Below, one piece after another: positions 33,101 through 56,803 of a stretch of 64,000 nt of DNA (position 1 is its first letter; each line of letters begins with the position of its first letter). The stretch comes from Promethearchaeia archaeon (GTDB lineage Archaea > Asgardarchaeota > Lokiarchaeia > Sigyniarchaeales > SOKP01). Below the pieces are notes generated by a model, which was not told where the DNA came from, did not search any database, and saw only the letters and a program-made list of their open reading frames with translations. A program made the position numbers and the translations under genes. The DNA is taken from the NCBI GenBank assembly GCA_049671145.1, contig JBATUM010000185.1:1828-65827 (forward strand). The letters are read 5' to 3'.

Positions 33101-36100
33101 GCCACTAAATTTGACTATCCTATTACTAAAGTTACAATTGAAGGGTTTTCACCTACTTATGGTCCTTATGGTCTGCTTGTAGTTGATGAAGAACCCTTAT
33201 TTGAGGTAGAGCTTGATACATATGACTACAAGTTGATAGGAGGTAATTTGTATTTCCTTCAAAGTATTAATACCATAGCGGCACAGAAGGATCCAGACTT
33301 CAATAATAAAATTTCCACCATCCAAAGTATGGACAGAGAGTTCTATTACAGAGTTAATATATTTTTCAATACCATTGTGCCCTATGACAGTTCCCGTGTG
33401 TATGATGATGAATTTACTCAATCTAGCAGACCAGCTCAGGTGTTATATGAATATGTGGATACTGAAGCCGATGATTTAGGCAAGTTAGCACTAGCTCAAT
33501 TGATTTCCTTGAGTATTGGCAATTATCTTGAAGTATTTACGTTAGCAACAGCAACCGCAGAATATCATACCGAGCAAAGATATACGACTGATATCACCTT
33601 ACAATCTACTCTTATCACTTCACTTGCACTTGCCCCCATGACCATAGCTAATTTGTACGGATCATTCTCGAGCTCAGTTTTGGCTGAGCTTTCCGAGGAG
33701 GCTGGAGAGGAGATTACAAAATTGACAACCCAACAAGCGTTAATATGTTTGGCTAAAGCTTCTGCTGTTGTGTTAGCGAGCATTCCCACTTCAGTTCTTA
33801 AGGAAGTCTATGAAGAATTATATATCGATACGTGGATTGAGCATACTACTGATAGAATTGTTACTGCACTTGGCGGAGATGAGGGAGCTGCATCATGGTG
33901 GTCAACTTTTATCTGTTCTTTTAGAGAGGCATTTCTCGGATGGTTTAGTGATGTAAATATTGGTTCTGGAGCTGATTCCCAAGTTACCACCGAAACTACT
34001 CAAACCACAGGCACTCCTACCTATGCTGATATGGGATTGAATGCCGCGTGGGATTTAATTCAAAACACAGAGCAGGCCCTTCAAAATATTGAAGTTGCTA
34101 TACAACAAGGACGGAAAGTAGCTTCTAAAGGAATTTTAAGCTCTTTAGTCGATACTGATTCTATTCTGGCTCTTCTCTTATCTATACCAGGATTAATAGT
34201 AGGCGGTTTTGGGTTAGGAGCTCTTTCACTGCTAGGTTCTGCTAGTATGGATATGATTCATGCCCAGATCCAGAAGAATGTAGCAAGAAAATGGGTTAGC
34301 GCATATGAAAGTATACAAGAGAATATGCAGCAGAGTTTGGATGGGTTAATAGAACAAGAGATTGCCCGACCGAAGATCAAAACTTTAGATCTTGAAGTTT
34401 TCAACTATCCAACGGTAGGATATACCCCAGAAATTGGGAGGCAATTAACCCAAAACTATCTTACTCCTGCACAAATCATTGATCAAACTAATACACTTAT
34501 AGCAGATACAGAAAAGACATTAGCAGAGATAGAGTCTCGGTATGAAATTCAGAAAGAAAATATTGAACAACAATTAGAAGTTTTAAAAGAAATGGTAAAT
34601 TCAGAGTCCGTTTCCAATGAAAATCCCTTTGAAATTTTTGTAGCAGAAGCTGCTGTGAAAGCTGATCCTGTTTATGAAGTAAATGGCATGAGAATATGGA
34701 TTCAACCGCTTCCTGCTGAGCATTATAACTTAGATCATGATATGACATTGAATGAATTTTTAGCTTTAATAGACATCTTAAATGATCCTTCAAAACAAGC
34801 GGTATTCAATGGTTTTATTCTCCAACATGGGACAGAAATTCTCACCGCACAAGGGATCATTCGATTAGATGGAAATATGCCCCTTTCTCAAGCATTAGAC
34901 CTTATTGGATATGATCGAAATAATTTGGAAGATCAATTTAATAGGTTAGCTCCTTGTATTCAAATAATTGACACAACTACACTCCTACAATTACAAGATG
35001 ATATATCGAATCTATTCAATCCTGATGCAAGAGAAGCAATTTTTTATCGAAATAGTATTTCTGACTATCAACGAAGTTATTTTTATTATAAATTTTTAAA
35101 AGTTTATCAAATACAACAATCTGAAATAAAAAACACATTTAATAAACCGATATATGAAGTAATCTATAGTAGGCTAGTGAATAGCTTACCAACGGATATT
35201 GAATTTACACTAGAGGCGTGGAAGCAAGAAGTTGATGATAAAGCAAAACAAGAAGGAAAAATTACAGATGAATTTAGATATATTGTTGACCTATGCCTTA
35301 AAGAAGTAATTTTACTTAATTTGATCGAACTCTCAGGTGCGAACGAAATTGACATAAATGAAATATTTAACTCATTGGATAACTACTTAGAAAATAATTT
35401 GGATGCCCTTATTGAAAAGTTATCTGATCCCAAAAATTTCGCATTACTCTTAGCTGAAGTCAAAAACAAGATCATTGACAACCTCGCACAAGATGACTTA
35501 TCAGTGTTTTTAGCCCTTACTCACCGATACTTTGATTCCATAAACCCGAATCCAAGTCAACTAAATCTGTTGGATGAGCAATTTCAAAATATCCTAATAT
35601 TAAAAGATTTATCTACTATAGCTGAAGATAATAATGTTCGTAATGAAATTAATTTTCTGTCCGATTTTATCTACCGATTACTCAATATTTACTCTGAAAC
35701 TGCTATTTTAGAGGGTTTAAATGATTTACCTGTACCAGGAGATAAAAGAGAAGGAAATGATTTTATAAATAAATTCTTAAATATGCAGGGTCCTAATAGT
35801 GAAATCCAGTACTCCATAAATCACCTCAGAAATATGTTCACAGCATTAGGATTAAATAATGACCTTTTGAAAGAGATGCTTTTAGATCAAAAATCTTTCT
35901 TTAGGGTTTTACGTCAAAAAATTCAACAAGCTAGCCAAAATCAAGATTTAGATCAAGAAGTTAGAAATATATTCAATAATATTGAAACAAACTTAGGAGA
36001 TTTAGATTTCAATGGAAATGATGGATTCACGAGTGATGAAGAGATGCTTTTAAAGATTTTAGATGAAGAACTTAATAATCTTTTTGGATATGTTGGTTAT

Positions 36101-37033: not shown

Positions 37034-37504
37034 ATGGAAATAATAGTAAAAAAGGTAAGAACAGGAGCAGAATATGAAGGCAAAATTGCAAATTTTTGGA
37101 TTTTAGGGCAATTAAAAGATTCCTCATGTATATGGATCTTTGACAGTAAGGCATATGATTTAAGGAAACACATAAACAACAATGTTGAATGTTTAATTTT
37201 AGCTTTTTTAGTGAATCTTACTCAAAAAGATTATAAGCAAGATAACAAAGAATCAATAACTAATATAATTAGTGGAAATTTTATTAAATCTGCTCTAATA
37301 ACATCAGACTGGAAGTTGCCATGGAATTATAAAGAAAAGCACTTTGCGGCATTAAACACAAATAATGGTTTGGTTTTATTGGATTGGGCAGATCTTGAGA
37401 CAATACCTATTCGAGAAAACATCGAAATTAAATTTCAAGAGCTAGATGAATTAAAATTATATGTACAACGATTCGATTTGGTAGCTTGGCATCCAATTGA
37501 ATAA
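37034..37504 (+). CDS. Putative immunity protein 1 (AWHPIE family, 156 aa)
   Basis: It starts 60 nt after the giant ORF stop and is preceded by a TAGGAGCG Shine-Dalgarno-like sequence. No TM segment or signal peptide is visible. It is paralogous to 38503-38985 and to the remnant at 41297-41536, and its C-terminus reads VQRFDLVAWHPIE. Confidence 0.6.
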   Translation: MEIIVKKVRTGAEYEGKIANFWILGQLKDSSCIWIFDSKAYDLRKHINNNVECLILAFLVNLTQKDYKQDNKESITNIISGNFIKSALITSDWKLPWNYKEKHFAALNTNNGLVLLDWADLETIPIRENIEIKFQELDELKLYVQRFDLVAWHPIE

Positions 37505-37590
37505 TTTTTATTCTATTTTCTTTAATTCCTCTACTTATTAAATATAATTAAAAGATAATCTAAAAATAGTAAAAAATTGGAATAAAAAAT

Positions 37591-37941
37591 GTGGATCTAA
37601 TGGTAAGATTAAATCAAGAATTTGATGAGCCAATAAGTGAAAGTATGTCAGGATTTTTAGTAGATATAATTGACAAAATAGATGAAATTACTGAACAAAA
37701 CCCTGATCAAATAATAAATGATTATCTGGCAAAATATTATGAAAGAAGGAAGCCAGTAGAACATTCTTTTAGTGATGATTTAATTGAAATTGTCAAAAAT
37801 GATATTATACTCAATATAATAGAAGTGAATACAGAAAAATTTGAAAATGTTAGTCAACCTGTAATGAATAAATTAATTGTGTTTTTCAAAGATTTTTTTA
37901 TAGATGAATTCCATAAATACAAAAACATTGAAATAAGTTAA
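37591..37941 (+). CDS. Hypothetical acidic protein; possibly a decayed pre-toxin linker of the orphan cassette
   Basis: GTG start, 116 aa. Its end overlaps, in another frame, the point where CT2 homology begins (37937). KNDIILNIIEVNTEKF weakly resembles KNPLYHININDIFTKQF in the giant protein. Confidence 0.35.
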   Translation: MDLMVRLNQEFDEPISESMSGFLVDIIDKIDEITEQNPDQIINDYLAKYYERRKPVEHSFSDDLIEIVKNDIILNIIEVNTEKFENVSQPVMNKLIVFFKDFFIDEFHKYKNIEIS

Positions 37942-38494
37942 TTTCTTTAGATCATCTCATTCATGGAATTTAGAATTAATTTATGAATTAAGAGGAAATG
38001 GTGTAACTTTTGATATTGCAAAAACAATAGGTCTAGCAAGAGAAGGTCGAGAAATCATAGAATTACCTGATGGCTCCTTTGCAATTAGTGGAAGGGAAAG
38101 TAGGGTTACATGGCTAGAATTAGGAAATCAATTTGGTGGTATGGAACATATTCTGTATGATACATTTATATTTGGCTCTTACGCTCCACACCCTACGCAT
38201 TTAGGCCATCTTGGGGATTTTGCAAAGTATGGTTATGATACAAAAGAAGAAATTGCTGAATTAATATTAAAAACAATCCATGAAAATGATTATTATATGT
38301 ATCTTGGTAGACATACTTATAGAATTGAGACTAAATCAGGTGAAACTATATATATAGGAATTATTATATCATCAAATGGATATATAATTAATGCCCATCC
38401 TTGGGATCGGGATCAGGATGATATTGATAATTTAAATAAAATCTTTCAGGAGATTGATGATTATTTCAATTTTAAATTATTTAATAATTGGTGA
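37937..38494 (+). pseudogene. Orphan CT2 cassette (start-less copy of the giant protein's C-terminal about 185 aa)
   Basis: The frame opens right after a stop at 37934-37936 and translates to VNFFRSSHSWNLELIYELRGNGVTFDIAKTIGLAREGREIIELPDGSFAISGRESRVTWLELGNQFGGMEHILYD..., collinear with giant residues VNFFRLSQ...EHILYD. The first ATG is internal, at 38141. Confidence 0.75.
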
Positions 38495-38502
38495 ATATTT
38501 TT

Positions 38503-38985
38503 ATGAAAGTTTTCTTAGAAAAAGTAAATATTGGGACTGAATCAGAGGGAGTAATATATGAATTCCTAATTCATGGTCGATTAAATAGTAATCAAATTAT
38601 ATATATTCATGATGACGCTGCGAAATTTGATCTTCGAAATTTTGAGAATCAGGTAGTTGAAATTCTTTTAGTAGCACATAATATTTCCCTTAAAACCACT
38701 TCAAGGAGACCTGATACTCAATTAATAGATAGGGAACTTAGAGTTATTAAAGGCAACTATCTTGGAAGATATGTTCTCCCTAATGAATGGCATGATTCGA
38801 AATATTTTCATAATGAGAGATCCTATAAGTATTGGCATCATCTTGATCTTCATGCGATTAAAGCGGAAAATGGAATATTTATAATTACGAATGAGAATGC
38901 TGAAAAGTTACCCATTGAAAAAGGAGAAAAAAGCTATTTCTATGTTGATAGTTTTTATATGATTGCATGGCATCCAATTGAATAA
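38503..38985 (+). CDS. Putative immunity protein 2 (AWHPIE family)
   Basis: An ATG at 38503 lies 8 nt after the CT2 stop (the track's TTG at 38488 is less likely). The N-terminus MKVFLEKVNIGTESEG parallels MEIIVKKVRTGAEYEG, and the C-terminus reads VDSFYMIAWHPIE. Confidence 0.6.
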   Translation: MKVFLEKVNIGTESEGVIYEFLIHGRLNSNQIIYIHDDAAKFDLRNFENQVVEILLVAHNISLKTTSRRPDTQLIDRELRVIKGNYLGRYVLPNEWHDSKYFHNERSYKYWHHLDLHAIKAENGIFIITNENAEKLPIEKGEKSYFYVDSFYMIAWHPIE

Positions 38986-39358: not shown

Positions 39359-39634
39359 ATGAAAGAAAATTTTAATTGTCAACGGAAAAATAATGTAAAT
39401 CAAGGCGTATTGCATAATTACAGATTAATTTTAGAAGGGATTATACGCTTTGAACATGAGAAATCTATTCTTTTTGAACTTAGAAAGAATAAAGAATCCT
39501 ATATTTCTTTTAAGATTAAAAAAATAGTAGCAGATATTAAATCAATCACCTTTAATGAGTGGCAGATCAAGAAAGAAAACTTCTATAACAAATTAAAAAT
39601 CAATGAAATAGGGAGAGTGCCATGGAGATCTTAA
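39359..39634 (+). CDS. Hypothetical small protein (91 aa), translationally coupled to the helicase-like gene
   Basis: The ORF overlaps the next start by 13 nt. No recognisable motif. Confidence 0.4.
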   Translation: MKENFNCQRKNNVNQGVLHNYRLILEGIIRFEHEKSILFELRKNKESYISFKIKKIVADIKSITFNEWQIKKENFYNKLKINEIGRVPWRS

Positions 39635-41094
39635 AAGTTAATTCAGAAGAATTAGTTAGATATCCTGTTAAAAATTTCATTGGAAAGGGAACTTTTAATA
39701 ATAAAAGTTCTGGAACGGGTAAAACTTGGAAGAGTTATGAAATTATAGACTATGGAATAGAACATCAAATGCTCATGATGATTTGCTTACCGACTCATGA
39801 TAATATAAAGGAATTTATAAAGAGAATGAATAACCATAGGGATAATGCAATTCAGTTAAAGGGTAAAATGAAATATTGCAAGTTAAGAAATAAAGTCAAT
39901 GCTTACTTGATCGGATGTACAACATGTAAACATCAAAGAAAATGTCGATATATAAAGCAATTTTCAATAGCAAAAGATAAACAGATTATATTCATAGTTC
40001 CACATCATCTACATTTGGTTCGTGAATTTAATCCAGACATTCTTATAATCGATGAAAGTATAGAAAAACAAGCTCATAAAGGAATAAAAATTCCAGAAAG
40101 GGTAAATCCGAATAATTATTTAGTACAAGCGAATTGTAATACCTGTCCATTTAGTAATAAGTGTTCAGATCAGCGTAAGAGGTTTAAAAGAAACCACGGT
40201 TGTTATTTTACGTTATACAAAACCCTTAATTTGGATGATTTTGAACCAGAATCTTTAGAAGAATATTTTTTCAAATATAATTATGAAAATTTAGACAATA
40301 TATTTGCTGTTGAAGATAATAGTAGAAATCACGTTATTATCGGAGATACACCTCTAGATTTCTTAAATCAAGTCAATACTCTTATTTTCAATTGTGCTAC
40401 AACAAGAATTTCAATTGCAGAGAAAATATTTCAACGGAAGTTCGATATTGTAATATTAGATGAAGAAAAATTAGAGAATAGGATATTTTTACTAGATGAT
40501 CTAATGACAAAGAAGAAAACTAAAGTAGAATTAACTAATGCTGAGAAATATTTTGAAGTACTGAATATCCCATTAGGAGATAAGACGTTGATCTATACTA
40601 AAAAAGAATTTGAAGAATATTTTAAAAAGAAATTTCCTAAAGTAAAAACAGGTCATTATGGTGATAGCAGGGGTTATAACAAGTTTGAAGAATGTGAAAA
40701 TGTTATTATATTTGGAAGATACGGACTAACACCAGCAGTTCAAATGTTATTGGAATTAAGAGGGTATAAATCAAGAGAAATACACTGGTTTGAAAAAGCA
40801 GAGGAACTTCAAGCTATGCATAGAATTCGACCGATAAGAGATAAAAATAAAATGATTTATTTATTATCAAATTCTCTTAAAGAAGTTGTTGAACCAACAG
40901 ATTACATTAATTTGAATAGTTTAAAAATTGGTTTCGAAATCCTTAACGGAGATTATGAAGGTATGACGAAAACTGAGATATATGAAAAAGTTAAGGGAAA
41001 CATAAAAGATAAAATAAGAGCTATCGATACATTACAAAACACAGGCAAAATAGGAGATATGACAGGGAGGGGCAAGAAATTACAGAAGATATAA
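39622..41094 (+). CDS. P-loop NTPase, divergent XPD/DinG-like SF2 helicase with Cys clusters
   Basis: Walker A is SSGTGKTW and the Walker B/DExx-like motif is ILIIDESIE. A CATT motif-III-like element and QAMHRIRPIR (motif VI-like) are present. The cluster C-x12-C-x2-C-x5-C (CKLRN...CTTCKHQRKC) sits between motifs Ia and II, as in XPD Fe-S helicases. A second cluster reads CNTCPFSNKC. Confidence 0.45.
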   Translation: MEILKVNSEELVRYPVKNFIGKGTFNNKSSGTGKTWKSYEIIDYGIEHQMLMMICLPTHDNIKEFIKRMNNHRDNAIQLKGKMKYCKLRNKVNAYLIGCTTCKHQRKCRYIKQFSIAKDKQIIFIVPHHLHLVREFNPDILIIDESIEKQAHKGIKIPERVNPNNYLVQANCNTCPFSNKCSDQRKRFKRNHGCYFTLYKTLNLDDFEPESLEEYFFKYNYENLDNIFAVEDNSRNHVIIGDTPLDFLNQVNTLIFNCATTRISIAEKIFQRKFDIVILDEEKLENRIFLLDDLMTKKKTKVELTNAEKYFEVLNIPLGDKTLIYTKKEFEEYFKKKFPKVKTGHYGDSRGYNKFEECENVIIFGRYGLTPAVQMLLELRGYKSREIHWFEKAEELQAMHRIRPIRDKNKMIYLLSNSLKEVVEPTDYINLNSLKIGFEILNGDYEGMTKTEIYEKVKGNIKDKIRAIDTLQNTGKIGDMTGRGKKLQKI

Positions 41095-41536: not shown

Positions 41537-41866
41537 TTATTAATTTTTAATTCAATTCCATTCACATTATAATCTCTCTATTTAAAGGTAAACTAATTTA
41601 GCCAAGCCGGCTTAATAGGGTAATATCTTAGAAGCTAGTTGTATAAAAAATATCTATGTTTCTGATCTTAATGTAGAGTAGTTAAACCAACTCCTGGTTA
41701 AATACGAGTTTCATAATGATTTGAATGAACTCTTAACCATCAATGCAGAGCGTCAAATCCTGCATAATATCCAAGATTTTTCCAGAGCATTTTTACACAT
41801 GTATGAGTTGTAACCTTAATATTAATTTTAAGTCCGCAGGGAGATAACCTTGATGGATTCTTAGAT

Positions 41867-44800
41867 TTGCTATGGGACAATTTATTGAGCATGGGAGCCT
41901 CTGATCCTGACGTATTTGTTGCTCTTGATTTTGATGACCTAAACTTAGATTATTTCTTAATGACTAGTGAGCTACCTGCTTATAATTTTAGACCGGGATA
42001 TTCATACCCAAATACCAATAATCTCGATAACGTATATCATACATATGCGGTTAATACATTAGGTTACGTGGAATATCTAGTACAACACTCCTCAAATAAT
42101 CAATTTGACACAATTCGCCCAGTATGTAAAGATGGAAGACCTCAATATGAATTTGTGGAGCGCGATAGCTACGATAAAGTGCTCCCGCAATCAGTTCTTT
42201 ACCAACCAATCGTATTAGATCAATATCGATTTAGCCAGCTCAGACCTCAGCTTGGTCATCTTATCGTAAATGTACAGTGTAGACCTCATGATTATAATAA
42301 TTCTATTGGTATTAACCCTTATGTGATGAATGCAGTCGAGGCAGATGTATATAAAGCCAAAATTCCACTCTTTCAGCATGAGTTTGATTATCCCGTGCAG
42401 AATGTTTACATCGATATTGTAAAAAGTAATCCTGAATATGAAAACGGAATACTCTCAAATTTGAATTTGAAATATCTTGCCCAAGACATTTATGTAAATG
42501 AATCATATTATGCATTTGAGCAAGGACAGCTCTACTTCACTGCCCCAATTGAGACCTTAATTACTCAAAAATATCCCCATTATAGGACCGCACTAAAGGA
42601 TATATGGCGGATAGAAGGTATGAATTCCAAGGTATACTATCGCCTCCATGTCTATTTTGATGTTTTTGTTCCTGATCTTACAGAAGAGACTCATAGATTA
42701 GCACTAGCCCAAGCATCTTCCTATGCAATTATGGATTATTTCAATCAATACACTTACGCTGAAGTCACAGCGAATATGATTTCTGAAATTGCTTATACTG
42801 AGACAGTAACCTTCTGGTCCACTATTATTAGCGCTCCTATGATGATGTTTGGTTCATACCTCGTAGAGGGTTTAGAAGAGGGGATAGCACGAGCAGGAGT
42901 GCAAATGGCGTTGACCACGCTTACCGCTCCGATAAAGGAAGTATTCCAAGAAATTATTATGGATGGATTTATAGAGGCATTCGCCGAGAATTTTGCGGAT
43001 ATAATGGGCTGGTCTGACGATGTTGGATATTGGCTCTCTGCTTTAGCAACCTCAGGTCGAGAAACTTTGTTGGGTCCCTTAGGAAAATTAACTTGGGGAA
43101 AGATTCGAGAAATGACTAAGTTGGACCTTGAGATAAAAAACACCGTTAAATTAATGCAGCAGGCAACTCAATCTCAAGATACCGATACTGCCAATAAACT
43201 TCGTCAGACATTAGAAGATCTATACCGACAACAAAGTGAAGCTAGACAACAGAAAGAACAGGAGAAAAAGACATGGAAAAAATTACTTGCCTCTGACTTT
43301 TTCAAGGGAGTTCTAATGACTATTCCATCTGCCTTTATTGGTGGATTTAACATATTTTCTTTCATGGGAATGCAAAATATGCTCTCAGGTACGTTGAGCC
43401 ATATTAATATAAAGACATTTTCTAAGATACGAGCGGTACAACAAGCGTCCAGAAGAGGAAAATTACAGCACATTCTTGATGAATACGGAATTGAGGGTGA
43501 TGTCCTTTCCAGAAATATCGAAAGCAACTTGAAACAGCCTACCGATATTGATGGAGAAGCGCTACATAATTTATTTAAAGAACAGAATGAAGAAGACCTT
43601 CCGGGAGTAAAGAATACTATAGTGTTTAACCCCAATCCTAAGGCTGCTAAAACTGTGGAAAAAATTAATATACCGAATAAGTTTGAGGAGATCCGATTAG
43701 CAAATTGGGTTGATGAATTAACAAAAGATTATAAATTTGAGGATAAGAAGAAAATCTCTGACCAAGTAAGTAAGACGACAAATAATGTTGAAGAGACTGA
43801 ACTTAAGTCTGACATCATGATCGGGGATCTATATGAAGGCTTATTTTACCAATTTAATAAAATTCGAATAGGGAATCTCTATCATGAATTTTATGCCACT
43901 GGAACTTTGCAAACCGATGGTAAGAAAGTCTCGAAATTACTCTATTCTAAGCAATTGATAACCGATGCGATTATTATGCTCAGTTCCACTAAATATAAAG
44001 GAGTCCCAATTATCATAGACCAAGAAATCAACTTCATAGTTCTAGAAGCTATTATAGCTAAAATAAAAGAAGGACACACGATCACCCAGCTTGAGAGAAT
44101 AATAATGGACATTGGCATCTTTATTGAAGGAAGATACGATATTATTGGAAAGGTAAATTCAGCGTCTGATTTCAATGAAAAATTCTTTGAAAAAACGAAG
44201 CGGAATGTAAAGAAACTTGGAATTCTAAAAGTAATAGGGAGATCGATGTTTGGCAAATTAAAACCAGGTGCTAAAGTTGCTTATGAGATTAAGAACGAGG
44301 GAGAAGTGTATAATGTAGATGATATTATTGTATTTTATCGGGATGGAGTGAAAATTGTCCATCGGGTTGAATATATATTCGAATCCAATGGTGAAATCTT
44401 CTATGTAACCGAGGGTGTGAATTCCGATACTAATCCATATGTAGATAGTGATCTTGTTTCCAACGATCAAGTTATTGGAAGAGTCACTGAGATGTCTGAA
44501 CAAGATTTATCCGCTCTTATAGAAATGGCAGAACAAGGGAAGGTCCCCTCTATTGAGGGTTTAGGAATGTCGAATGCTTTAGAAAAAGTCTATCAATCAC
44601 TATACAAAACAAGCAAAAGCCTTAGAAATATGAGGGATAATCCTATAGGCTTAACTAGGGAACAACTATTAGATTTTGTCATAAATAAAATTTCTGAGAT
44701 AAATGTAGAAGCTTTTACAGATATAGATAAAGTAAAGGAAGCAAGAATAAGAATATTAACTACATGTTATGAAATGATTGAAAGGAATATCTATTCTTGG

Positions 44801-45658
44801 TTTAGTAAAGACTTAAGTAAAAAAATGATTACTTATCTGTATAAAGAATTTATTTACCCTAGTGGCAAATCTACACATCCAGTTAGTTCAGATTATTTTA
44901 TAGACCAAGTACTCATCTTGGGTGAAGTTCTCAAAAGCTTGAATAATTATTACGAGCCAGAGACATTTAAGGAAAATCTAAAAGCTCTTCTCAATAGCAG
45001 AGAGTTTCGTTCTTATAATAATTTAGGTGGTTCTCAAAAGCAAGAATTCATTAATAACCTAATTAAAAATGTATGGAAAAATTCATATGAAAGTTTATGT
45101 TTAGAATTACTTTACAAAGAATTCACATACCAAGGTAAGGAAGCATTATATTACAAACCAGAAGATGTGCTTATTGAGAAAACGACTTGTACAACTGTTT
45201 TAAAAAGTCCTGGAGATAACTTTTTCCAACCTACTGAAATTTATCTAACTTTTGGTGAACATGAATTTAAATTTGATAAACGTGCTGGAAATGGTATAAT
45301 ACATATTTTTGCAGGACATTGGGCTGATTTCGCTAGATTACATCCTGATCTTAATACTCCTGAAGCCATAGCAAAATTCATATTTGAACTAATTAAGTCT
45401 CAGAAGGGAGTCGTTATGGAAGATGGAGGTAAAATAGTATATGCATTCCGATTTAAAGGGGAACAAAAAGTCCGTTATGTAGAACTTTTAGTTGATGATG
45501 GAGGACCAATGGGTCCAGAAGGTAGATTACATACAGCATATCCAGTAGATCTTACAAAATCCAAATATAAAGATAAATATATAGAATACAGAAATTATTT
45601 TATAAGACATTCAAATCTAATTCAAAATGATATAGACTTAAAAAATATACTAGTATAA
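41867..45658 (+). CDS. 5'-truncated paralog (orphan module) of the giant gene's 3' end, with a distinct CT3 domain
   Basis: The 1,263-codon ORF has only a TTG start. Its first about 500 aa are collinear with giant residues encoded at about 32520-34290. Decayed, frame-broken homology continues upstream (41700-41866). The C-terminus carries a third variant of the CT domain. Confidence 0.7.
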   Translation: MLWDNLLSMGASDPDVFVALDFDDLNLDYFLMTSELPAYNFRPGYSYPNTNNLDNVYHTYAVNTLGYVEYLVQHSSNNQFDTIRPVCKDGRPQYEFVERDSYDKVLPQSVLYQPIVLDQYRFSQLRPQLGHLIVNVQCRPHDYNNSIGINPYVMNAVEADVYKAKIPLFQHEFDYPVQNVYIDIVKSNPEYENGILSNLNLKYLAQDIYVNESYYAFEQGQLYFTAPIETLITQKYPHYRTALKDIWRIEGMNSKVYYRLHVYFDVFVPDLTEETHRLALAQASSYAIMDYFNQYTYAEVTANMISEIAYTETVTFWSTIISAPMMMFGSYLVEGLEEGIARAGVQMALTTLTAPIKEVFQEIIMDGFIEAFAENFADIMGWSDDVGYWLSALATSGRETLLGPLGKLTWGKIREMTKLDLEIKNTVKLMQQATQSQDTDTANKLRQTLEDLYRQQSEARQQKEQEKKTWKKLLASDFFKGVLMTIPSAFIGGFNIFSFMGMQNMLSGTLSHINIKTFSKIRAVQQASRRGKLQHILDEYGIEGDVLSRNIESNLKQPTDIDGEALHNLFKEQNEEDLPGVKNTIVFNPNPKAAKTVEKINIPNKFEEIRLANWVDELTKDYKFEDKKKISDQVSKTTNNVEETELKSDIMIGDLYEGLFYQFNKIRIGNLYHEFYATGTLQTDGKKVSKLLYSKQLITDAIIMLSSTKYKGVPIIIDQEINFIVLEAIIAKIKEGHTITQLERIIMDIGIFIEGRYDIIGKVNSASDFNEKFFEKTKRNVKKLGILKVIGRSMFGKLKPGAKVAYEIKNEGEVYNVDDIIVFYRDGVKIVHRVEYIFESNGEIFYVTEGVNSDTNPYVDSDLVSNDQVIGRVTEMSEQDLSALIEMAEQGKVPSIEGLGMSNALEKVYQSLYKTSKSLRNMRDNPIGLTREQLLDFVINKISEINVEAFTDIDKVKEARIRILTTCYEMIERNIYSWFSKDLSKKMITYLYKEFIYPSGKSTHPVSSDYFIDQVLILGEVLKSLNNYYEPETFKENLKALLNSREFRSYNNLGGSQKQEFINNLIKNVWKNSYESLCLELLYKEFTYQGKEALYYKPEDVLIEKTTCTTVLKSPGDNFFQPTEIYLTFGEHEFKFDKRAGNGIIHIFAGHWADFARLHPDLNTPEAIAKFIFELIKSQKGVVMEDGGKIVYAFRFKGEQKVRYVELLVDDGGPMGPEGRLHTAYPVDLTKSKYKDKYIEYRNYFIRHSNLIQNDIDLKNILV
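44237..44494 (+). other. Sec11/S26B signal-peptidase-like (S24/S26 fold) domain embedded in the orphan module
   Basis: The boxes occur in the canonical order: GRSMFG (box B, Ser), DDIIVF (box C), KIVHRV (box D, His), VTEGVNSDTNPYVD (box E, diverged from TKGDNNxxxD), then QVIGRV. Confidence 0.55.
45265..45655 (+). other. CT3 putative toxin domain (divergent member of the CT1/CT2 family)
   Basis: FKFDKRAGNGIIHIFAGHW...PEAIAKFIFELIKSQ...EGRLHTAYPVD aligns with CT1 FWLELGNQFSGFEHILYD...REDIATLILNTIKTQ...SNGYIISAYPQ. Confidence 0.5.
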
Positions 45659-45728: not shown

Positions 45729-46568
45729 ATGGGTTTTTATAAAATAGACGGAAAAAAATATGAGGTAAAAAAAGATTATATCAATCTATATGAATGTGGA
45801 TTAAATTTAATTCGTGATATTATTGGTTTAGACCAACTGGTAAATTTAAGAGCTTTATTGTTAGAACGTAACAATATTAGTGATATCGAAGGATTGGAAA
45901 ACCTTATAAATTTAAAAATTTTAAACTTAGAGGATAATCATATTAATGAGATTAAGGGATTAGAGAAACTTACAAATTTAGAGACATTGAAATTGAATAT
46001 TAATTCAATAAGTAAAATAGAACAAATTGAAAATTTAACGAATTTAATAGAATTAAACTTAAGTTCAAACAATATTAAAATAATAGAAGGACTTACGAAA
46101 TTGATAAAATTAGAAAAATTATCTTTGGCAAATAATCAAATTTCCAAAATTTCTGGTTTAAATTCGTTAAAAAATCTCTCTCTATTAACTTTAGATTCTA
46201 ATAAAATCACAAAAATAGAGAATCTACCCATATCAAAAAAATTAGAATCTTTAAGTTTAGGTGATAATAAAATCACTGAAATTTCTGGCTTAGATAATTA
46301 CAGGAATTTGATACTTTTATATTTAAGAAATAATAAGATTAGTGAAATTACGGGTTTAAAATCTCAGAATAATTTGGAATATCTTGATTTAAGCAATAAT
46401 AATATTAAAGAGTTAAAGGGATTAGAGAGGATGACAAAATTAACTCAATTAGAATTTGGTGGAAATTTAATAGATCCTAATTTGATTGAAAAATTAGGTG
46501 GTTTAGATAGAAGTGGATGTGCATTACAACCTCAAAAGTTTGTTGAATATTGTAGAAAAAATAAATAG
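45729..46568 (+). CDS. Leucine-rich repeat protein (about ten 22-aa LRRs, SDS22/internalin-like)
   Basis: The unit LxxLxxLxLxxNxIxxIxGLxx repeats regularly, for example LENLINLKILNLEDNHINEIKG and LEKLTNLETLKLNINSISKIEQ. No TM segment or signal peptide is visible. Confidence 0.85.
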   Translation: MGFYKIDGKKYEVKKDYINLYECGLNLIRDIIGLDQLVNLRALLLERNNISDIEGLENLINLKILNLEDNHINEIKGLEKLTNLETLKLNINSISKIEQIENLTNLIELNLSSNNIKIIEGLTKLIKLEKLSLANNQISKISGLNSLKNLSLLTLDSNKITKIENLPISKKLESLSLGDNKITEISGLDNYRNLILLYLRNNKISEITGLKSQNNLEYLDLSNNNIKELKGLERMTKLTQLEFGGNLIDPNLIEKLGGLDRSGCALQPQKFVEYCRKNK

Positions 46569-46725: not shown

Positions 46726-47316
46726 ATGACTAAAAATATTGATTTACATACCCAACTTGTATTGAAGTTATTAAATGGGTTAAATTCTAAACCGATAGAT
46801 GGAAAAATAAAATTCCAAAAGATAGCTTTCTTGGTTTTAAGGAATTTTGAAGAGATATTTGAGTTTTTTGATTTCAAAGCTCATAGATTTGGTCCTTATA
46901 GTGAATCTTTGAATTATACTTTAGAAGAAGTTAAGAACAAGGAAGAAGCACAAATAGAGAAAGATACAATAAAAATTACTGAAAATGGGAGAAAAAAATT
47001 AAATGAATTAGAATCCATTACAGAGTTAAGCGAGAAAGAGAAGAAAAATAAGGAATTAATTGAAAAAGCAATTGAAAATATAAAGGAAGACTTTATCAAT
47101 TTCACCAGTGATGAGATGTTAGCTTTTATTTATAAAAGTTATCCTAACTACATAAGTGATTCTATTGTAGCCGATAAAATGGACTATGAGAAAATATTTC
47201 TTGAGTTATATGATAAAGGTGAATTAGGAATATCAAAAATTGCTGAGTTAATGGACTGGGAGTTTCAAGATGCATACGATTTTATAAAAAAGAACACCAA
47301 GTTACAAATCTTATGA
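46726..47316 (+). CDS. Putative antitoxin (C-terminal UPF0175-like HTH; N-terminal Panacea/DUF4065-like region)
   Basis: The C-terminus GELGISKIAELMDWEFQDAYDFIKKN resembles the UPF0175 HTH that partners with PIN toxins. The N-terminus KFQKIAFLVL...FKAHRFGPYSESL resembles the Panacea pattern. The stop overlaps the PIN gene start (ATGA). Confidence 0.45.
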   Translation: MTKNIDLHTQLVLKLLNGLNSKPIDGKIKFQKIAFLVLRNFEEIFEFFDFKAHRFGPYSESLNYTLEEVKNKEEAQIEKDTIKITENGRKKLNELESITELSEKEKKNKELIEKAIENIKEDFINFTSDEMLAFIYKSYPNYISDSIVADKMDYEKIFLELYDKGELGISKIAELMDWEFQDAYDFIKKNTKLQIL

Positions 47317-47804
47317 TAGTAACAAAACTCTTTGATACAGTCGTTTTAATAAATATTCTCCAAGATATTGATATTGAAGATATATTACTCAACTGGGGTG
47401 AAAATCCTAGCTATGACCAATGGACTTCTTATGAGGTAAACCTAGAAGTTCAGAAGAAAGCAAGAATCAAGCTTGATAAATTGATTACTGATAATGTTAT
47501 AAGAATCTTCAATCAAGCACCTCAGAATAATCTTAAACAAATTCAAGGTTTTAACCCTAAATTATCAATAGCTGACTGTTCTCTAATATATCACTATACA
47601 AGGGTAAATAACGTTATATGTTTAACAAATGATTTAGACCTTAGAAAGTATTTCATTAAAAACAATTTTAGGTTATCAGGGACTAATGGGATTTATTTAA
47701 AAGTACTAAAAGATGGTAATTTTCCCAAAGATATCATTGAAGAAAAATTTAAAGATTTAAAAAACGACTCTCGGGTGTTTCCGCAACCTGAAATTAATAA
47801 CTAA
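47313..47804 (+). CDS. PIN-domain toxin (VapC/DUF3368-like)
   Basis: An N-terminal Asp is present in LFDTVVLINIL. Later acidic positions occur in IADCSLIYHY and ICLTNDLDLRKY (the T-x-D motif). The 4-nt start/stop overlap with the upstream gene is typical of TA pairs. Confidence 0.6.
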   Translation: MIVTKLFDTVVLINILQDIDIEDILLNWGENPSYDQWTSYEVNLEVQKKARIKLDKLITDNVIRIFNQAPQNNLKQIQGFNPKLSIADCSLIYHYTRVNNVICLTNDLDLRKYFIKNNFRLSGTNGIYLKVLKDGNFPKDIIEEKFKDLKNDSRVFPQPEINN

Positions 47805-50892: not shown

Positions 50893-53800
50893 TTGTTTAA
50901 TATGAGTTTAAAATATAGCGATTATCTGAAAAACAAAAAAAACGATAAAAAATATAATGAATCTCGTTTTGAAGATGAGGGTGATAATTCTGATTATTTA
51001 GATATTTGGACGGTAAATCCTTTTTATAAAGATATTAATACTAAAAAGTTAAGAGCCAAAATAGGCTTTTTTGCAATTTTAATCTTAGCAACATCGTTTC
51101 TAATTCTATCTCTCTTTTCTAAAATTAATTACTTAATAGGAGCAATAGCTTTCCTTCTAGTATTGCTATTTTATGAAAATATCTTTAACTTTTTCAACAA
51201 CCTCTTTACAAGCGTTCAGGGATTGAAGTGGATCAATCCATATAAAGATTTGATATTCTGGACAAATGATCCTGAAACCCTTGTAATGGTAAATAAGAAA
51301 AATTCGTTGGTATTTGCAATTCAAATATTTGAAGTTAAAACCTTGCCTGAGAATGTCCATCCTACTTTAAATCATTTTCTTAAAGCACTAAACAATGCAA
51401 ATATTAAATACTCGTATCAGGTCGTACAAACTCCATTGATGTATCAAAAACTCAAAATAAAGAAAATTAGTAATAATGAAACTTCAATTTATTTTAGTGT
51501 ATTTGATCAGAGAAAAGGCATTTTAACTAAAAGCAAAATTGATAATTTAGTTCAAACTGTACGGTTTAACTCAAAAATATTCAAGTCTCATCTTAGTTCG
51601 AATTTTCATCATACACAAATCTCCTTATTAAGCGGGCTTAATTTAATTAACGCGATTAGAGCAATTTTTTGTGGAATTAATCTTGATAAAATAGAGTTTA
51701 GAGACCTTAACAATGAGCATTCTAAAAACAATGTTCGTTACATAGTAAAATTAATAGTTATAGCTCTTTTTATAGGATTAGTATCTTATTTTTCAACGTA
51801 TTTTTCACTTCCTTGGATATTCATACTCTTATTAGATATTATAATCATAATGGCGCTCATTTTCATTTGGTGGGAAGATTTGTTATATTCTATTTCAAGG
51901 GTTTGTTTTCTTAATAATATAAACGTAAAATCTGTTGATCCCTTCATAGATATTAATTTTTATCGAATGAAAGGGTGTAGAGATACGCTTTTTCTTCTCT
52001 TAGATGATCACTTATTAATTGGACTCAAACAATTTAGCTTAAAACATGCGATTCAGAAATGCTTTATATATTCCGAGAAACTTTTCCGAGAGCTGAATAA
52101 TCAGAAAATAACTTTTATTTATACTCTTCAGGCTATACCTTTATTACCTAGCGATTTTAGCAAAAAATGTTCTAAATTTCTAAATGAAAAAGGATATTCA
52201 GATATGAAAAGAATATTTGGGGAAACAGTGCTTGGTGGAACATCTACTCCTCCAGCTAAAAATGCCCCCCTAGTGTTTAAAAATTGGTTAAACATGAGAT
52301 CAGGGATTTGGAACACAATTTTAACAGTGTCAGTATTATCATATCATTTTATTAATCCAAGAGATATTAGCCATTTTGAGGATGTAGAGGAAGACCTAAT
52401 AAGTAAGTCTGAAATTATGCTAAGGGCATTTGAGGACAATTTTCTCAATCTTAAATTAACTCAATTGAGAAATCATAAACTAATTAATGGATATCGATTT
52501 GTGTCTCTTAAAAATAGTTTATTCAAGGCAAAGAACACAGGTTTACCTTGTGTATATTTCCAAGGAAAGACCTTAATATATCTAAATGCTATTTCAAATG
52601 AATTTAAAAAAGGATTAGAAACCAAAATCGCTGCAGAATTTAATACTCCCCTCCATTTGAAAAATGATATTATTATAGGAGAAACCATCAATACTGAGTT
52701 CTTAGAAAAAGAAGGTGAATTAGGCTTTAAACTTGAGCAGGTAAAGCAACTACTAATTACTAATGGGCTTTCTGAGCAAAGAGAACACACAATGATGAAG
52801 ATTGTAACGGAACTTATAAAGATAGGAATACCATGTGTGATATTTGATTATTCAGGAAAGTGGTCGAAACTAATCAGTAATTTTAAAAATACGTACTTAG
52901 AAGAGACCTTTTTATATTTCAAATTAGGACGCTCATTTAGCCTGTATTTAATAGATTCAGAAGAAGATTATGATAAACATAACTTAGAATATTTAAACTT
53001 ATTTTACGATGTATTTGCGTTAGCCTTTAAGGAACAAAGAAAAAGTGTTGATCTTCTCAAAGAATCTGTAACAAAAAATAAGGAAATTGATATAAGCACA
53101 CTTGCTTTAGAGCATGAAATGGAAGAACAACTCTTTAAAAAAAATAATTATAATAGTTTGCTTGAGCTTTTACAGGGATTTATTGATTGGAGAGCTTTAT
53201 TTTCATCTAGATCGTTAAAATTTGAACAAGAAATTAAACCTATTGATTTTCTTAAAATTGATAAAACGATCATCATTGATTTATCTTTATTAGAAGAATT
53301 GAAACAAAAAAATTTCAGTACCTTTGTTCTCTTATCCAAATTCATACATCATCTTAGAAATGTAAATGATTTTCACAGAAAAGTTATTATTATTCCTCAT
53401 ATCGATCTTTTTTTTGATGCATATTACATTGATAATTACAATATGGTTGATTATGGTACAATCGAAAAGTTTTTAGATCCATTTCTTGACAATGGATTTG
53501 GGCTAATTTGTTCAGCAAATCAAATACGATATCTGCATTCTCATGTGTTTACCTACTTTCCAAATATCATTACATTTAAAGCTACGGATCCTCGAGATAT
53601 TGCGGTGTTAAAAAACACAATAAATTTGCAAGAATTACAAGGAACAGGTTATTATAGTTCAAAACGAAATAATACATACCAAATTGATTATCTTATGAAT
53701 TTGCGAAAAAATGAAGTCATTGTAAAAAGATCTGATATTAATCAACCATTTCCGGGAGAAATTAATTACGATCAACTCCAATTAACCCCTCTCCTTTCAC

Positions 53801-54717
53801 AGGATACAATAGCGGTTTATATGGAAAGGCAAGGATATGCTTATAAAGATCATGAGAGACGTATCTTAGAAAGAGCTAAAGAGACACTTTTTGAAAAAGA
53901 TTTTGGAATCTATTCGGAATTTATTGATGATATAATTAAGTTTTTGGCTAATATAAGTGCCGTTGATAAGATTGGGGGGAATTATGAGCATAAACTTAAA
54001 GAAGAACTTCTAAAATATATTCATTCAAACGCAATACATAAAACGAAAGATAAGAAGAAAATTAAGCAATTAAGAGATGCCCTTTTCCGCATTCTTAAGC
54101 AACAAAGTTATTTAGTTGAGAGTCACCCACTTCAAGCGAGTGGAGGGCAAACTACACGCACTTGCTATAAAGTCGGACAAAAATATCATAACGCACTTAA
54201 GGATTATTATAGCTCAAAAAAAAGGTTAGCCCCTAATATTTCTGTTGATGTAATTGAAAAGAATATAAAGAATAATTCTAAGGGGCTTAATATGTTAAAA
54301 GGGGTATCTTCAAATGATACAATCAGAAGTGATAAATTTAAAGATATAGTATTTAGAGAATTGGGAAGTTTTATATGGCAATTATTTAAATTGCATGACG
54401 CAAATGAGAATAAACACTACGAAACATCATTAAAAGTTGGTAAAGATTTGATCTTTAATTATCTTACATCATTATACAAGATATTTCTTAAAATGAACGG
54501 AGGTCAAACTCCTGAAAGCATAAAACTTCCCTCATTTATTACGGCTCTGACTTCTTATAAAGTTATTCCATTTACTATGAATATGATTAAAGATTATTGT
54601 CAAAAATCAAAGCAATTATCCCAAAATGCAGAAAATCCCGAAAAGAATGCTCATGAATTAGAAGATTTAATCATGGAATTCTACAAGACTACTAGAATGC
54701 ATTTTATAACAAATTGA
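50893..54717 (+). CDS. Membrane-anchored HerA/VirB4-like protein with degenerate Walker A and B (pseudo-ATPase)
   Basis: There are two TM hairpins (about 51058-51175 and 51733-51875). The C-terminal half is collinear with the next gene, but its P-loop reads TNGLSEQREHT against MSGLTGVGKTT, and its Walker B reads VIIIPHIDLF against VIMMDEVGSI. Shared blocks are IIIDLSLL/VYIDLSGF and NIITFKATDPRDI/IKILFRTDKEDL. The ATG at 50902 may be the true start. Confidence 0.6.
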   Translation: MFNMSLKYSDYLKNKKNDKKYNESRFEDEGDNSDYLDIWTVNPFYKDINTKKLRAKIGFFAILILATSFLILSLFSKINYLIGAIAFLLVLLFYENIFNFFNNLFTSVQGLKWINPYKDLIFWTNDPETLVMVNKKNSLVFAIQIFEVKTLPENVHPTLNHFLKALNNANIKYSYQVVQTPLMYQKLKIKKISNNETSIYFSVFDQRKGILTKSKIDNLVQTVRFNSKIFKSHLSSNFHHTQISLLSGLNLINAIRAIFCGINLDKIEFRDLNNEHSKNNVRYIVKLIVIALFIGLVSYFSTYFSLPWIFILLLDIIIIMALIFIWWEDLLYSISRVCFLNNINVKSVDPFIDINFYRMKGCRDTLFLLLDDHLLIGLKQFSLKHAIQKCFIYSEKLFRELNNQKITFIYTLQAIPLLPSDFSKKCSKFLNEKGYSDMKRIFGETVLGGTSTPPAKNAPLVFKNWLNMRSGIWNTILTVSVLSYHFINPRDISHFEDVEEDLISKSEIMLRAFEDNFLNLKLTQLRNHKLINGYRFVSLKNSLFKAKNTGLPCVYFQGKTLIYLNAISNEFKKGLETKIAAEFNTPLHLKNDIIIGETINTEFLEKEGELGFKLEQVKQLLITNGLSEQREHTMMKIVTELIKIGIPCVIFDYSGKWSKLISNFKNTYLEETFLYFKLGRSFSLYLIDSEEDYDKHNLEYLNLFYDVFALAFKEQRKSVDLLKESVTKNKEIDISTLALEHEMEEQLFKKNNYNSLLELLQGFIDWRALFSSRSLKFEQEIKPIDFLKIDKTIIIDLSLLEELKQKNFSTFVLLSKFIHHLRNVNDFHRKVIIIPHIDLFFDAYYIDNYNMVDYGTIEKFLDPFLDNGFGLICSANQIRYLHSHVFTYFPNIITFKATDPRDIAVLKNTINLQELQGTGYYSSKRNNTYQIDYLMNLRKNEVIVKRSDINQPFPGEINYDQLQLTPLLSQDTIAVYMERQGYAYKDHERRILERAKETLFEKDFGIYSEFIDDIIKFLANISAVDKIGGNYEHKLKEELLKYIHSNAIHKTKDKKKIKQLRDALFRILKQQSYLVESHPLQASGGQTTRTCYKVGQKYHNALKDYYSSKKRLAPNISVDVIEKNIKNNSKGLNMLKGVSSNDTIRSDKFKDIVFRELGSFIWQLFKLHDANENKHYETSLKVGKDLIFNYLTSLYKIFLKMNGGQTPESIKLPSFITALTSYKVIPFTMNMIKDYCQKSKQLSQNAENPEKNAHELEDLIMEFYKTTRMHFITN

Positions 54718-54825
54718 AATCAAGTTTTTTATTTAAATATCCCTAAAATATTAACTTTTAAAACAAAATTCGAGGTGGTTTAGATCGAACCAGAATTTTG
54801 GCATGGAGTAGTAAAAATTACTCAA

Positions 54826-56772: not shown

Positions 56773-56803
56773 TTATAGGAGGGAGGGAATCTGAATTAGT
56801 GAA

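Follow-up and report, generated by a model that had tools for sequence, protein, structure and literature searches.

The occurrence of a signal peptidase-like sequence in the interior of a toxin gene raises the question of what such a domain is doing there. The gene at issue is an open reading frame (ORF) at 41867-45658 (+) in a 64,000-nucleotide (nt) stretch of contig JBATUM010000185.1 from a Promethearchaeia archaeon (GCA_049671145.1), from this point on referred to as the window. It has a TTG start, encodes 1263 amino acids (aa), and is a copy of a toxin gene of the giant type that has lost its 5' part, the giant itself being a 12,290-aa ORF at 101-36973 of the window. A first-pass annotation, made from the DNA letters alone, had placed a type I signal peptidase domain of the archaeal/eukaryotic (S26B) type inside this orphan. 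The segment in question, 44237-44494 (+), is in frame, encodes residues 791-876, and translates to the peptide reported there.

An S26B-like domain lacking a membrane anchor

A family hidden Markov model (HMM) spans residues 782-902 of the window protein (44210-44572, +), a unit comprising boxes B through E (44237-44494), an inserted helix and a final strand. The boxes are of the S26B type and stand in the order claimed for them. NCBIfam model TIGR02228 (archaeal-type signal peptidase I) matches with E=3e-11 (43.4 bits, profile positions 34-121 of 158) and NF046067 (SipW) with E=1e-9, while the family profile, compared with PDB sequences, finds SEC11C and SEC11A best, aligning IVHRV on IVHRV and TEGVN on TKGDN. 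The SM, IVHRV and GxN...D motifs are thus shared with MEROPS family S26B (Sec11/SEC11A/C, SipW, archaeal signal peptidase). Relative P0004, named 'signal peptidase I' by NCBI, scores 52.9 bits against TIGR02228, above the curated cut-off of 51.85. Matches of relatives to Pfam S24 (PF00717) are sub-threshold only (E 4e-4 to 0.03), and a single-sequence phmmer search against PDB gave only noise. The domain lies 387 aa before the C-terminus, where about 390 had been estimated, and the family HMM matches the six-frame translation of the window only once, in agreement with the statement that the tail of the giant has no counterpart.

An AlphaFold2 (AF2) model of the domain, built from 26 sequences, shows a core with a predicted local distance difference test (pLDDT) value of about 88-93. 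Foldseek matches this model to the Staphylococcus aureus signal peptidase SpsB (E 3.9e-4), to the LexA C-domain (template-modelling score 0.59, 25% identity in the alignment), to SipA and to the lambda cI C-domain, that is, to the beta-rich fold shared by LexA and the signal peptidases; as far as the fold goes, the structure prediction that had been proposed as a check agrees with the original assignment. Judged by profiles and model, the window domain is a true homologue of S26B signal peptidase I, and the resemblance is far beyond chance.

It is not, however, a conventional signal peptidase, because the TIGR02228 match starts at profile position 34 and positions 1-33, which hold the membrane anchor, are without a match. 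A hydropathy scan finds no transmembrane (TM)-like segment immediately N-terminal of the domain, where S26B enzymes carry their anchor (box A). The only hydropathy peak in the ORF by a crude scan, at aa 713-731, falls within the folded domain that occupies aa 695-754. Unlike S26B enzymes, the window domain is internal (aa 782-902 of 1263), and its family has Val, Ile or Leu in place of the Asp of GDN, a helix of ~15 residues before the last strand, and toxin domains afterward. Given this architecture, removal of signal peptides from secretory precursors is an unlikely task for it. LexA, UmuD and lambda cI (S24) share the superfamily fold, are likewise soluble, and provide a precedent for intramolecular cleavage at a small-residue pair, but they use a Ser-Lys dyad, whereas the window domain has His, with Asp, at the position of the base, has no DNA-binding domain, and lacks the Ser-Lys and PF00717 signature of S24. 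We also weighed a phage repressor-like reading, with an S24 domain lying by an integrase, and dismissed it, since the sequence has no helix-turn-helix, His replaces Lys, and toxins follow the domain.

Conservation of the catalytic residues

Word-indexed searches returned 27 relatives, all named ones coming from metagenome-assembled genomes of Loki-, Odin- or Promethearchaeota, and a full HMMER scan of 1.84 billion representatives gave 1030 matches at E<1e-3. The whole unit of S26 core, inserted helix and final strand is shared by 70 clusters at E<1e-10, in which it sits inside proteins of up to 1569 aa; these roughly 70 clusters are apparently all from Asgard archaea. Weaker matches cover profile positions 3-95 only, and the five inspected (P0089, P0094, P0099, P0103 and P0112) look like ordinary signal peptidases. 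Residues were counted in the 76 rows of the alignment extending to the final strand, the denominators being the rows that cover a given column.

The predicted nucleophile, Ser793 (box B, GRSM; 44243-44245, +), is Ser in 55/55 rows, and the predicted general base, His832 (box D, IVHRV; 44360-44362, +), is His in 73/74. Both residues had been called intact, and they are. Their interpretation as a catalytic dyad fares less well, since a conserved third residue is present, namely Asp860 (YVD; 44444-44446, +), which is Asp in 74 of 75 rows; the chemistry suggested by the alignment is likely that of a Ser/His/Asp triad. These three residues align with the SEC11A triad Ser56/His96/Asp122, of which Asp122 is essential and His96/108 is placed in box D (Liaci et al., bioRxiv 10.1101/2020.11.11.378711). 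Box E, by contrast, is as diverged as had been reported: the window reads GVN for GDN, and across the family the Asp is kept in only 3/76 rows and replaced by V/I/L/T in 69/76, while the Arg following the catalytic His is retained in just 23/74. The Asp-Arg salt bridge of GDN is therefore missing from the window domain. In SEC11A, the corresponding Asp116 is a salt-bridge partner of Arg97 only, and its mutant keeps activity (Liaci et al., bioRxiv 10.1101/2020.11.11.378711), so the divergence of box E falls on a residue that is dispensable there. Members of the P0022 type place the conserved Asp at G+7, matching canonical GDNNxxxD; three residues are inserted in most members. The ratio of nonsynonymous to synonymous substitution rates (dN/dS) is 0.15-0.5 for the domain, and the alignments indicate that the triad is under selection. 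One relative, P0032 (1079 aa), contains two S26-like domains in tandem (residues 479-558 and 687-804), the first with a box E, KGDAN, that is nearer to canonical GDN.

A constant/variable boundary with a small-x-small motif

All relatives align collinearly over the motif KVNSxSDFNENSFEK, the S26 core, the helix DLSxEAxxxLxEM and the strand VPxIxAxG, and directly afterward they are unrelated. In the window protein, this boundary between constant and variable sequence falls at G898-L-G900/M901 (44558-44569, +), a small-x-small junction (A/V/G-x-G/A then M) and candidate scissile bond. Position P-3 is occupied by A/V/G/I/T/S in 76/76 rows and P-1 by G/A in 72/73, with a bulky residue at P-2 and mostly Met at P1'; the -3/-1 rule of signal peptidases holds in 72/73 rows. 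The AF2 model is confident for the strand SIEGL (model residues 217-221) and has the chain disordered from G-M-S on. The stretch of SEC11A that follows its last strand protrudes from the substrate pocket (Liaci et al., bioRxiv 10.1101/2020.11.11.378711), and the chain would for that reason leave the domain near the active site. These features, by analogy and in the model, favor self-cleavage at G900/M901, although they stop short of proof.

At least five unrelated types of tail occur after the same domain, including a GIY-YIG nuclease (Pfam E 2e-8), a deaminase-like module, and Zn-ribbon/restriction endonuclease (REase)-like, HEMGH-type and other modules, which is the succession of unrelated toxin tails expected of a polymorphic toxin. 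In the case of the window protein, the tail ends in a putative toxin domain (aa 1119-1263; 45221-45655, +) in which two His and a Phe are invariant and an Asp nearly so. This domain, modeled by AF2 with pLDDT 90, aligns as a homologue with the C-terminus of the giant and with a second, much smaller orphan, orf38141. The best PDB match of its profile is the CdiA toxin 7m5f (E 0.017). Foldseek found nothing significant for its model in PDB (best E 0.36), and a homologue search with the domain returned nothing at E<=1e-3; its assignment as a toxin therefore rests on the weak CdiA profile match together with context.

Small ORFs downstream of the tails co-vary with tail type in related loci. For instance, a 106-aa family follows YFKRAQ-type tails, a family of 130-132 aa follows REase-type tails, and paralogues of 156 and 165 aa follow the two CdiA-CT-like tips in the window. 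From their distribution, these ORFs behave as immunity genes would, and we regard them as candidates for that role.

A 49-nt core at the head of exchangeable tails

Directly 5' of the S26 domain, at 44147-44195 (+), lies a 49-nt core of recombination type, GGAAAGGTAAATTCAGCGTCTGATTTCAATGAAAAATTCTTTGAAAAAA, with the in-frame reading GKVNSASDFNEKFFEK. The core sequence, GGAAAGGTAAATTCAGNGTCTGATTTCAATGAAAATTCCTTTGAAAAAA, is near-identical across Asgard loci: copies are 86-96% identical among loci, and their flanks are at background or at ordinary coding divergence. An exact search with 28 specified bases located it in at least 116 loci from Loki-, Hod-, Hermod- and Odinarchaeal genomes. Most copies lie outside long ORFs and have unrelated flanks, and where a locus has several, they are in direct orientation 0.4-3.5 kb apart. 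Among the matches listed, an S26 domain comes directly after the core in just 2 of the 116 new loci; pairs of core sites, again among the matches listed, share the left flank only in 110 cases, the right flank only in 53, and both in 8. This sharing of a single flank is the pattern in the sequences that recombination at the core would produce.

The toxin genes themselves form a two-by-two mosaic about the core. Upstream of it in the window ORF is a conserved alpha/beta domain (aa 695-754; 43949-44128, +; AF2 pLDDT 90-95), which is conserved also in P0007-9, P0011, P0018, P0071 and L093. This pre-core domain is joined to the S26 tail in the window ORF and in P0071, and to a FEIFVAEAAVKADP tail in L093. 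Where the upstream region is instead of the coiled-coil type, it is followed by the FEIFV tail in the giant and in L085 and by the S26 tail in P0050. The giant carries its core as a diverged copy at 34592-34636 (+; MVNSESVSNENPFEI, aa 11498), with 3 mismatches to the 28-base pattern and 7/45 to the core, and the tail following it has no S26 domain; L085 has a near-canonical core and then the same FEIFVAEAAVKADP tail as the giant. As read from these junctions, the S26 domain opens one class of exchangeable tails and is not a constant part of the toxin, and the tails are bounded by a core of the kind used in site-specific recombination.

In L001, L003/L004, L006 (twice) and L008, the ORF for the S26-type toxin adjoins a divergent tyrosine integrase of ~300 aa (Pfam Phage_integrase; integrase regions at L001 489-1912, L003 44-1413, L006 1338-2758 and 7612-9050, and L008 8687-9610). 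L008 apart, each of these loci has a 172-aa gene standing between the integrase and the toxin ORF, and homology to the window that begins exactly at GKVNS. A small ORF follows each of the toxin ORFs. A conserved, hairpin-containing arm, TTTGTCCCAATTTTCTGTGAAATTGGAATGGA, lies between integrase and cassette in L001, L003 and the second L006 copy, and is carried by 21/140 core copies among the matches listed. It is this adjacency that suggests a part for the integrase in recombination at the core.

The possibility of an attC-like hairpin or structured RNA was examined and discarded: the core DNA folds with -3.7 kcal/mol, for a z of -0.43 against shuffles. Rfam returned no relevant family for three core-bearing loci, and a scan of IMG/VR for the core gave no match, so that a viral origin is unsupported.

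Several further observations concern these loci. At L045 1-4335, L083, L044 and L065, ordinary genes lie in blocks between direct core repeats. To illustrate, one contig of 4.3 kb has a core at both ends and ORFs that, by eye only, resemble a prenyltransferase and a flavin adenine dinucleotide-dependent reductase. Another core lies just 3' of ribosomal protein genes. Such gene blocks between core repeats constitute an integron-like arrangement without attC-type hairpins. P0023 (236 aa) is a fusion between the N-terminal part of an HD-motif protein and the pre-core domain, core and S26 domain; elsewhere, the HD-motif protein is found 3' of the cassette (L001 3403-4074; L005 1263-1745). This chimera is, on its sequence, further evidence of rearrangement at these loci. 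After the second integrase-cassette unit of L006, the region 11153-16081 contains small ORFs and a primase-helicase-like gene (D5_N/DUF5906), which suggests that the cassettes ride on, or adjoin, an integrated plasmid- or virus-like element.

A proposed self-release of the toxin, and its alternatives

Our preferred answer to the question of function, in which our confidence is evenly balanced, is that the cassette-borne, S26B-derived protease cuts its own chain and frees the toxin, likeliest at the C-terminal junction. We infer this releasing role from the conservation of the triad, the place of the domain before hypervariable toxin modules, and the -3/-1 motif at the junction. Under this proposal, the exchangeable C-terminal tail of a polymorphic toxin from Asgard archaea would have incorporated a soluble, anchor-less derivative of S26B, which would act as a Ser793/His832/Asp860 endopeptidase on its own polypeptide. 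The most probable cut would fall at G898-L-G900/M901, where the last strand of the fold ends and conserved sequence gives way to the variable toxin, and would free the C-terminal toxin (for the window, the CdiA-CT-like His/His/Asp domain) from a membrane-associated carrier. Protease, toxin and downstream immunity gene would move together as one cassette starting at the core at 44147-44195, and recombination at that core, probably by the associated tyrosine integrase, would set the cassette behind different carrier genes.

A number of points weigh against this proposal. The 43.4 bits of the window domain are below the curated TIGR02228 cut-off of 51.85, and the expected Peptidase_S24/S26 match failed to appear in Pfam, searched with the whole ORF and with a 201-aa segment, profile support coming instead from the significant NCBIfam matches. 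Confidence of the model in the active-site loops is modest, with pLDDT 67 around Ser793 and 52 around box E. The VPxIxAxG strand is probably the canonical last strand of S26B (VPYIG in SEC11A), so the small residues at the junction could be structural. Since tails without the S26 domain stand behind the same core in the giant, L085 and L093, the protease is not needed by every toxin here. Finally, many relatives, like the window copy, are orphan fragments that are possibly never translated.

The serious alternative, in our estimate an unlikely one, is an active peptidase that makes a LexA-style N-terminal cut in the disordered linker G761-K-V-N-S765-A-S767, ~28 residues N-terminal of Ser793. 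What is released would in that case consist of protease plus toxin, and KVNS would be a VENN-like demarcation, serving at once as cleavage site and recombination core. The spacing is similar to that of LexA, whose cleavage at Ala84-Gly85 is 34 residues before Ser119. Both V-N-S and S-x-S satisfy the -3/-1 rule as well, AF2 gives pLDDT <50 at model residues 79-100, as for a flexible linker, and KVNS is kept in divergent members in which the DNA core has drifted (P0033, P0056, P0065 and P0106). Conservation of the peptide is nevertheless mostly explained at the level of DNA, because synonymous positions are conserved too. The same KVNS, moreover, occurs in the protease-less tails mentioned above, and the variable region begins after the protease, not before it.

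Cleavage may also play no part, if the domain is a non-catalytic adaptor, that is, a pre-toxin or entry domain that docks on a target or carrier through its peptide-binding groove. CdiA-CT entry domains likewise stand between the demarcation motif and the toxin, the drift of box E and of the Arg after His would fit, and the fold matches include S. pyogenes SipA, a non-catalytic signal-peptidase homologue. We consider this improbable, given that Ser, His and Asp are present in about 99% of members (at <=50% mutual identity) while neighboring residues vary freely, a pattern that is hard to explain without catalysis. It is also quite improbable, in our judgment, that the protease is active in trans, either as a second effector on target-cell proteins or in processing other copies or partners. 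Canonical S26 enzymes do act in trans, and P0032 has two such domains in tandem, but in complete sequences the domain is always before another toxin and is never the C-terminal module, and there is no membrane anchor to place it on signal peptides. Lastly, it is hardly credible that the domain is conserved as a mere homology handle for cassette exchange among decaying, untranslated orphan fragments, as many gene calls beginning inside or just before the domain and the stops or frameshifts in several copies (L009, L006a) might suggest, in view of the restriction of sharp DNA conservation to the 49-nt core, which excludes the domain, of the dN/dS values given above, and of the in-frame occurrence of the domain inside the long proteins P0071, P0088, P0032, P0028 and P0050.

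The orphan, the giant gene and their neighbors

The description of the ORF as an orphan module is correct as judged from its alignments: residues 8-505 are 29% identical to aa 10805-11383 of the giant, and the ORF is a partial copy of the 3' region of that gene. Homology to the longer relative P0071 (1454 aa), of which residues 509-1416 align with window nt 41855-44542 at 41% identity, begins abruptly, with nt 41855 corresponding to P0071 residue 509, and the comparison of window and P0071 shows none upstream of nt 41855. An ORF at 39622-41094 was considered as the missing 5' part and rejected, being without homology to P0071, P0088 or the giant. Because it sits in a 5'-truncated orphan ORF, the window copy is probably not expressed as a toxin but kept as a stored cassette.

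The giant protein contains a Laminin_G_3 domain (aa 1954-2117, E 5.6e-13) and, by hydropathy scan, six TM-like segments clustered at aa 637-875 as well as more hydrophobic segments near aa 10689-11383. Laminin_G_3 was the only Pfam match within its aa 1-2500 and last 1500 aa, where no known secretion domain was found. Its own toxin domain (36602-36970, +) is of the same family, by alignment, as that of the orphan. The second, tiny orphan lies between the giant gene and ORF 41867-45658; this toxin tip, orf38141 (38141-38494, +; 117 aa), copies the last 94 aa of the giant at 39% identity, and both orphans are thus partial copies of the 3' end of the giant, that is, orphan 3' cassettes. The candidate immunity gene 3' of the giant (37034-37504, +) has a paralogue after the orphan tip (38488-38985), their products of 156 and 165 aa being 28% identical (E 1e-18). 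Because these ORFs are paralogues, the region 37034-38985 is likely, by sequence comparison, a toxin/immunity duplication.

Directly 3' of the orphan ORF, at 45729-46568 (+), is a gene for a leucine-rich repeat (LRR) protein (Pfam LRR_4, E 2.7e-38). Homologous LRR genes of 278-279 aa are found 3' of the toxin ORF in three loci (window 45729-46568, L058 5916-6752 and L085 5386-6225), recurring although the toxin tails differ, and their product may be a conserved accessory or else an immunity scaffold that can adapt. Next, at 46726-47804, comes an overlapping gene pair in which a gene with a weak SocA/Panacea-like antitoxin domain (E 0.0025) is followed by a 163-aa ORF without a Pfam match that may be its toxin; this is probably a separate toxin-antitoxin pair. 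Further downstream, 50893-61603 holds three large consecutive ORFs of 1274, 648 and 1599 aa. The middle one matches a HerA/DUF87-like ATPase (E 4.8e-5), the other two are without a Pfam match, and the three may form a separate conflict or secretion module. Apart from Laminin_G_3 and this HerA-like match, Pfam searches with parts of the giant and the neighboring large ORFs were uninformative.

Comparison with known systems

Bacterial polymorphic toxins are released by in-line peptidases of the HINT, ZU5, PrsW, caspase-like, MCF1-SHE and PVC-metallopeptidase types, a catalogue that includes no S24/S26 type and that comes with the observation that such toxins are rare in archaea (Zhang et al. 2012, PMC3482391). 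Nor did our further searches of the literature bring up any toxin described as containing an S26-type peptidase. The Asgard family resembles the bacterial systems in having a conserved peptidase just 5' of a hypervariable toxin, along with immunity genes and orphan cassettes; it differs in that the peptidase is in the swapped cassette, not the constant carrier, and in its host. Likewise, the VENN motif of CdiA and the orphan cdiA-CT/cdiI modules have their parallel in the in-frame motif (KVNS...NEN) at the junction of constant and variable sequence and in the orphan tails with downstream immunity genes, to which the weak resemblance of the window toxin domain to 7m5f may be added. Unlike VENN, the Asgard junction extends over 49 nt whose sequence is conserved from one Asgard phylum to another and also occurs in intergenic, cassette-like arrays and by integrases, all of which points to site-specific rather than homologous recombination.

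Bacteroidales rAID-1 immunity arrays are comparable recombinase-associated cassette arrays. With archaeal integrons (Ghaly et al. 2022, PMC9668308), the core loci have in common a tyrosine recombinase, direct repeats around unrelated gene cassettes, and enrichment in Asgard archaea. They differ from integrons in that the core is conserved in sequence and, as its z shows, forms no significant single-strand hairpin of the attC kind, the recombinase is paired with the 172-aa protein, and copies of the site are found in frame inside toxin genes as well. Relative to these known systems, what is new is an S26B-derived in-line peptidase in an Asgard polymorphic toxin, borne on cassettes that start from a conserved in-frame core.

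Implications

A wider reading, which we advance tentatively and with some doubt, is that Asgard archaea possess a recombinase-driven cassette system based on a single 49-nt core, by which toxin tails are swapped in frame, each with a self-releasing S26B-derived protease, a toxin and an immunity gene, and that the same core punctuates arrays of metabolic-gene cassettes in Loki-, Hod-, Hermod- and Odinarchaeal genomes. In such a system, the core, lying in frame in giant surface-toxin genes, would allow a tyrosine integrase with its 172-aa partner to swap whole tails. The in-frame core and its linkage to integrases do suggest exchange of toxin tails by site-specific recombination. If correct, this would be a site-specific replacement of toxin tips combined with a signal peptidase-derived autoprotease, neither of which has been described so far. 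An S26B derivative would join the known in-line toxin-processing proteases, and a protease of the archaeal/eukaryotic secretory pathway would have been recruited, without its anchor, for self-processing. The Asgard archaea, of all known lineages the nearest to eukaryotes, are documented here as having a large polymorphic-toxin family; conflict systems of this type have so far been considered rare in archaea. Should the wider reading hold, the same core would organize cassette-like gene arrays genome-wide, which would bear on how Asgard archaea acquire genes.

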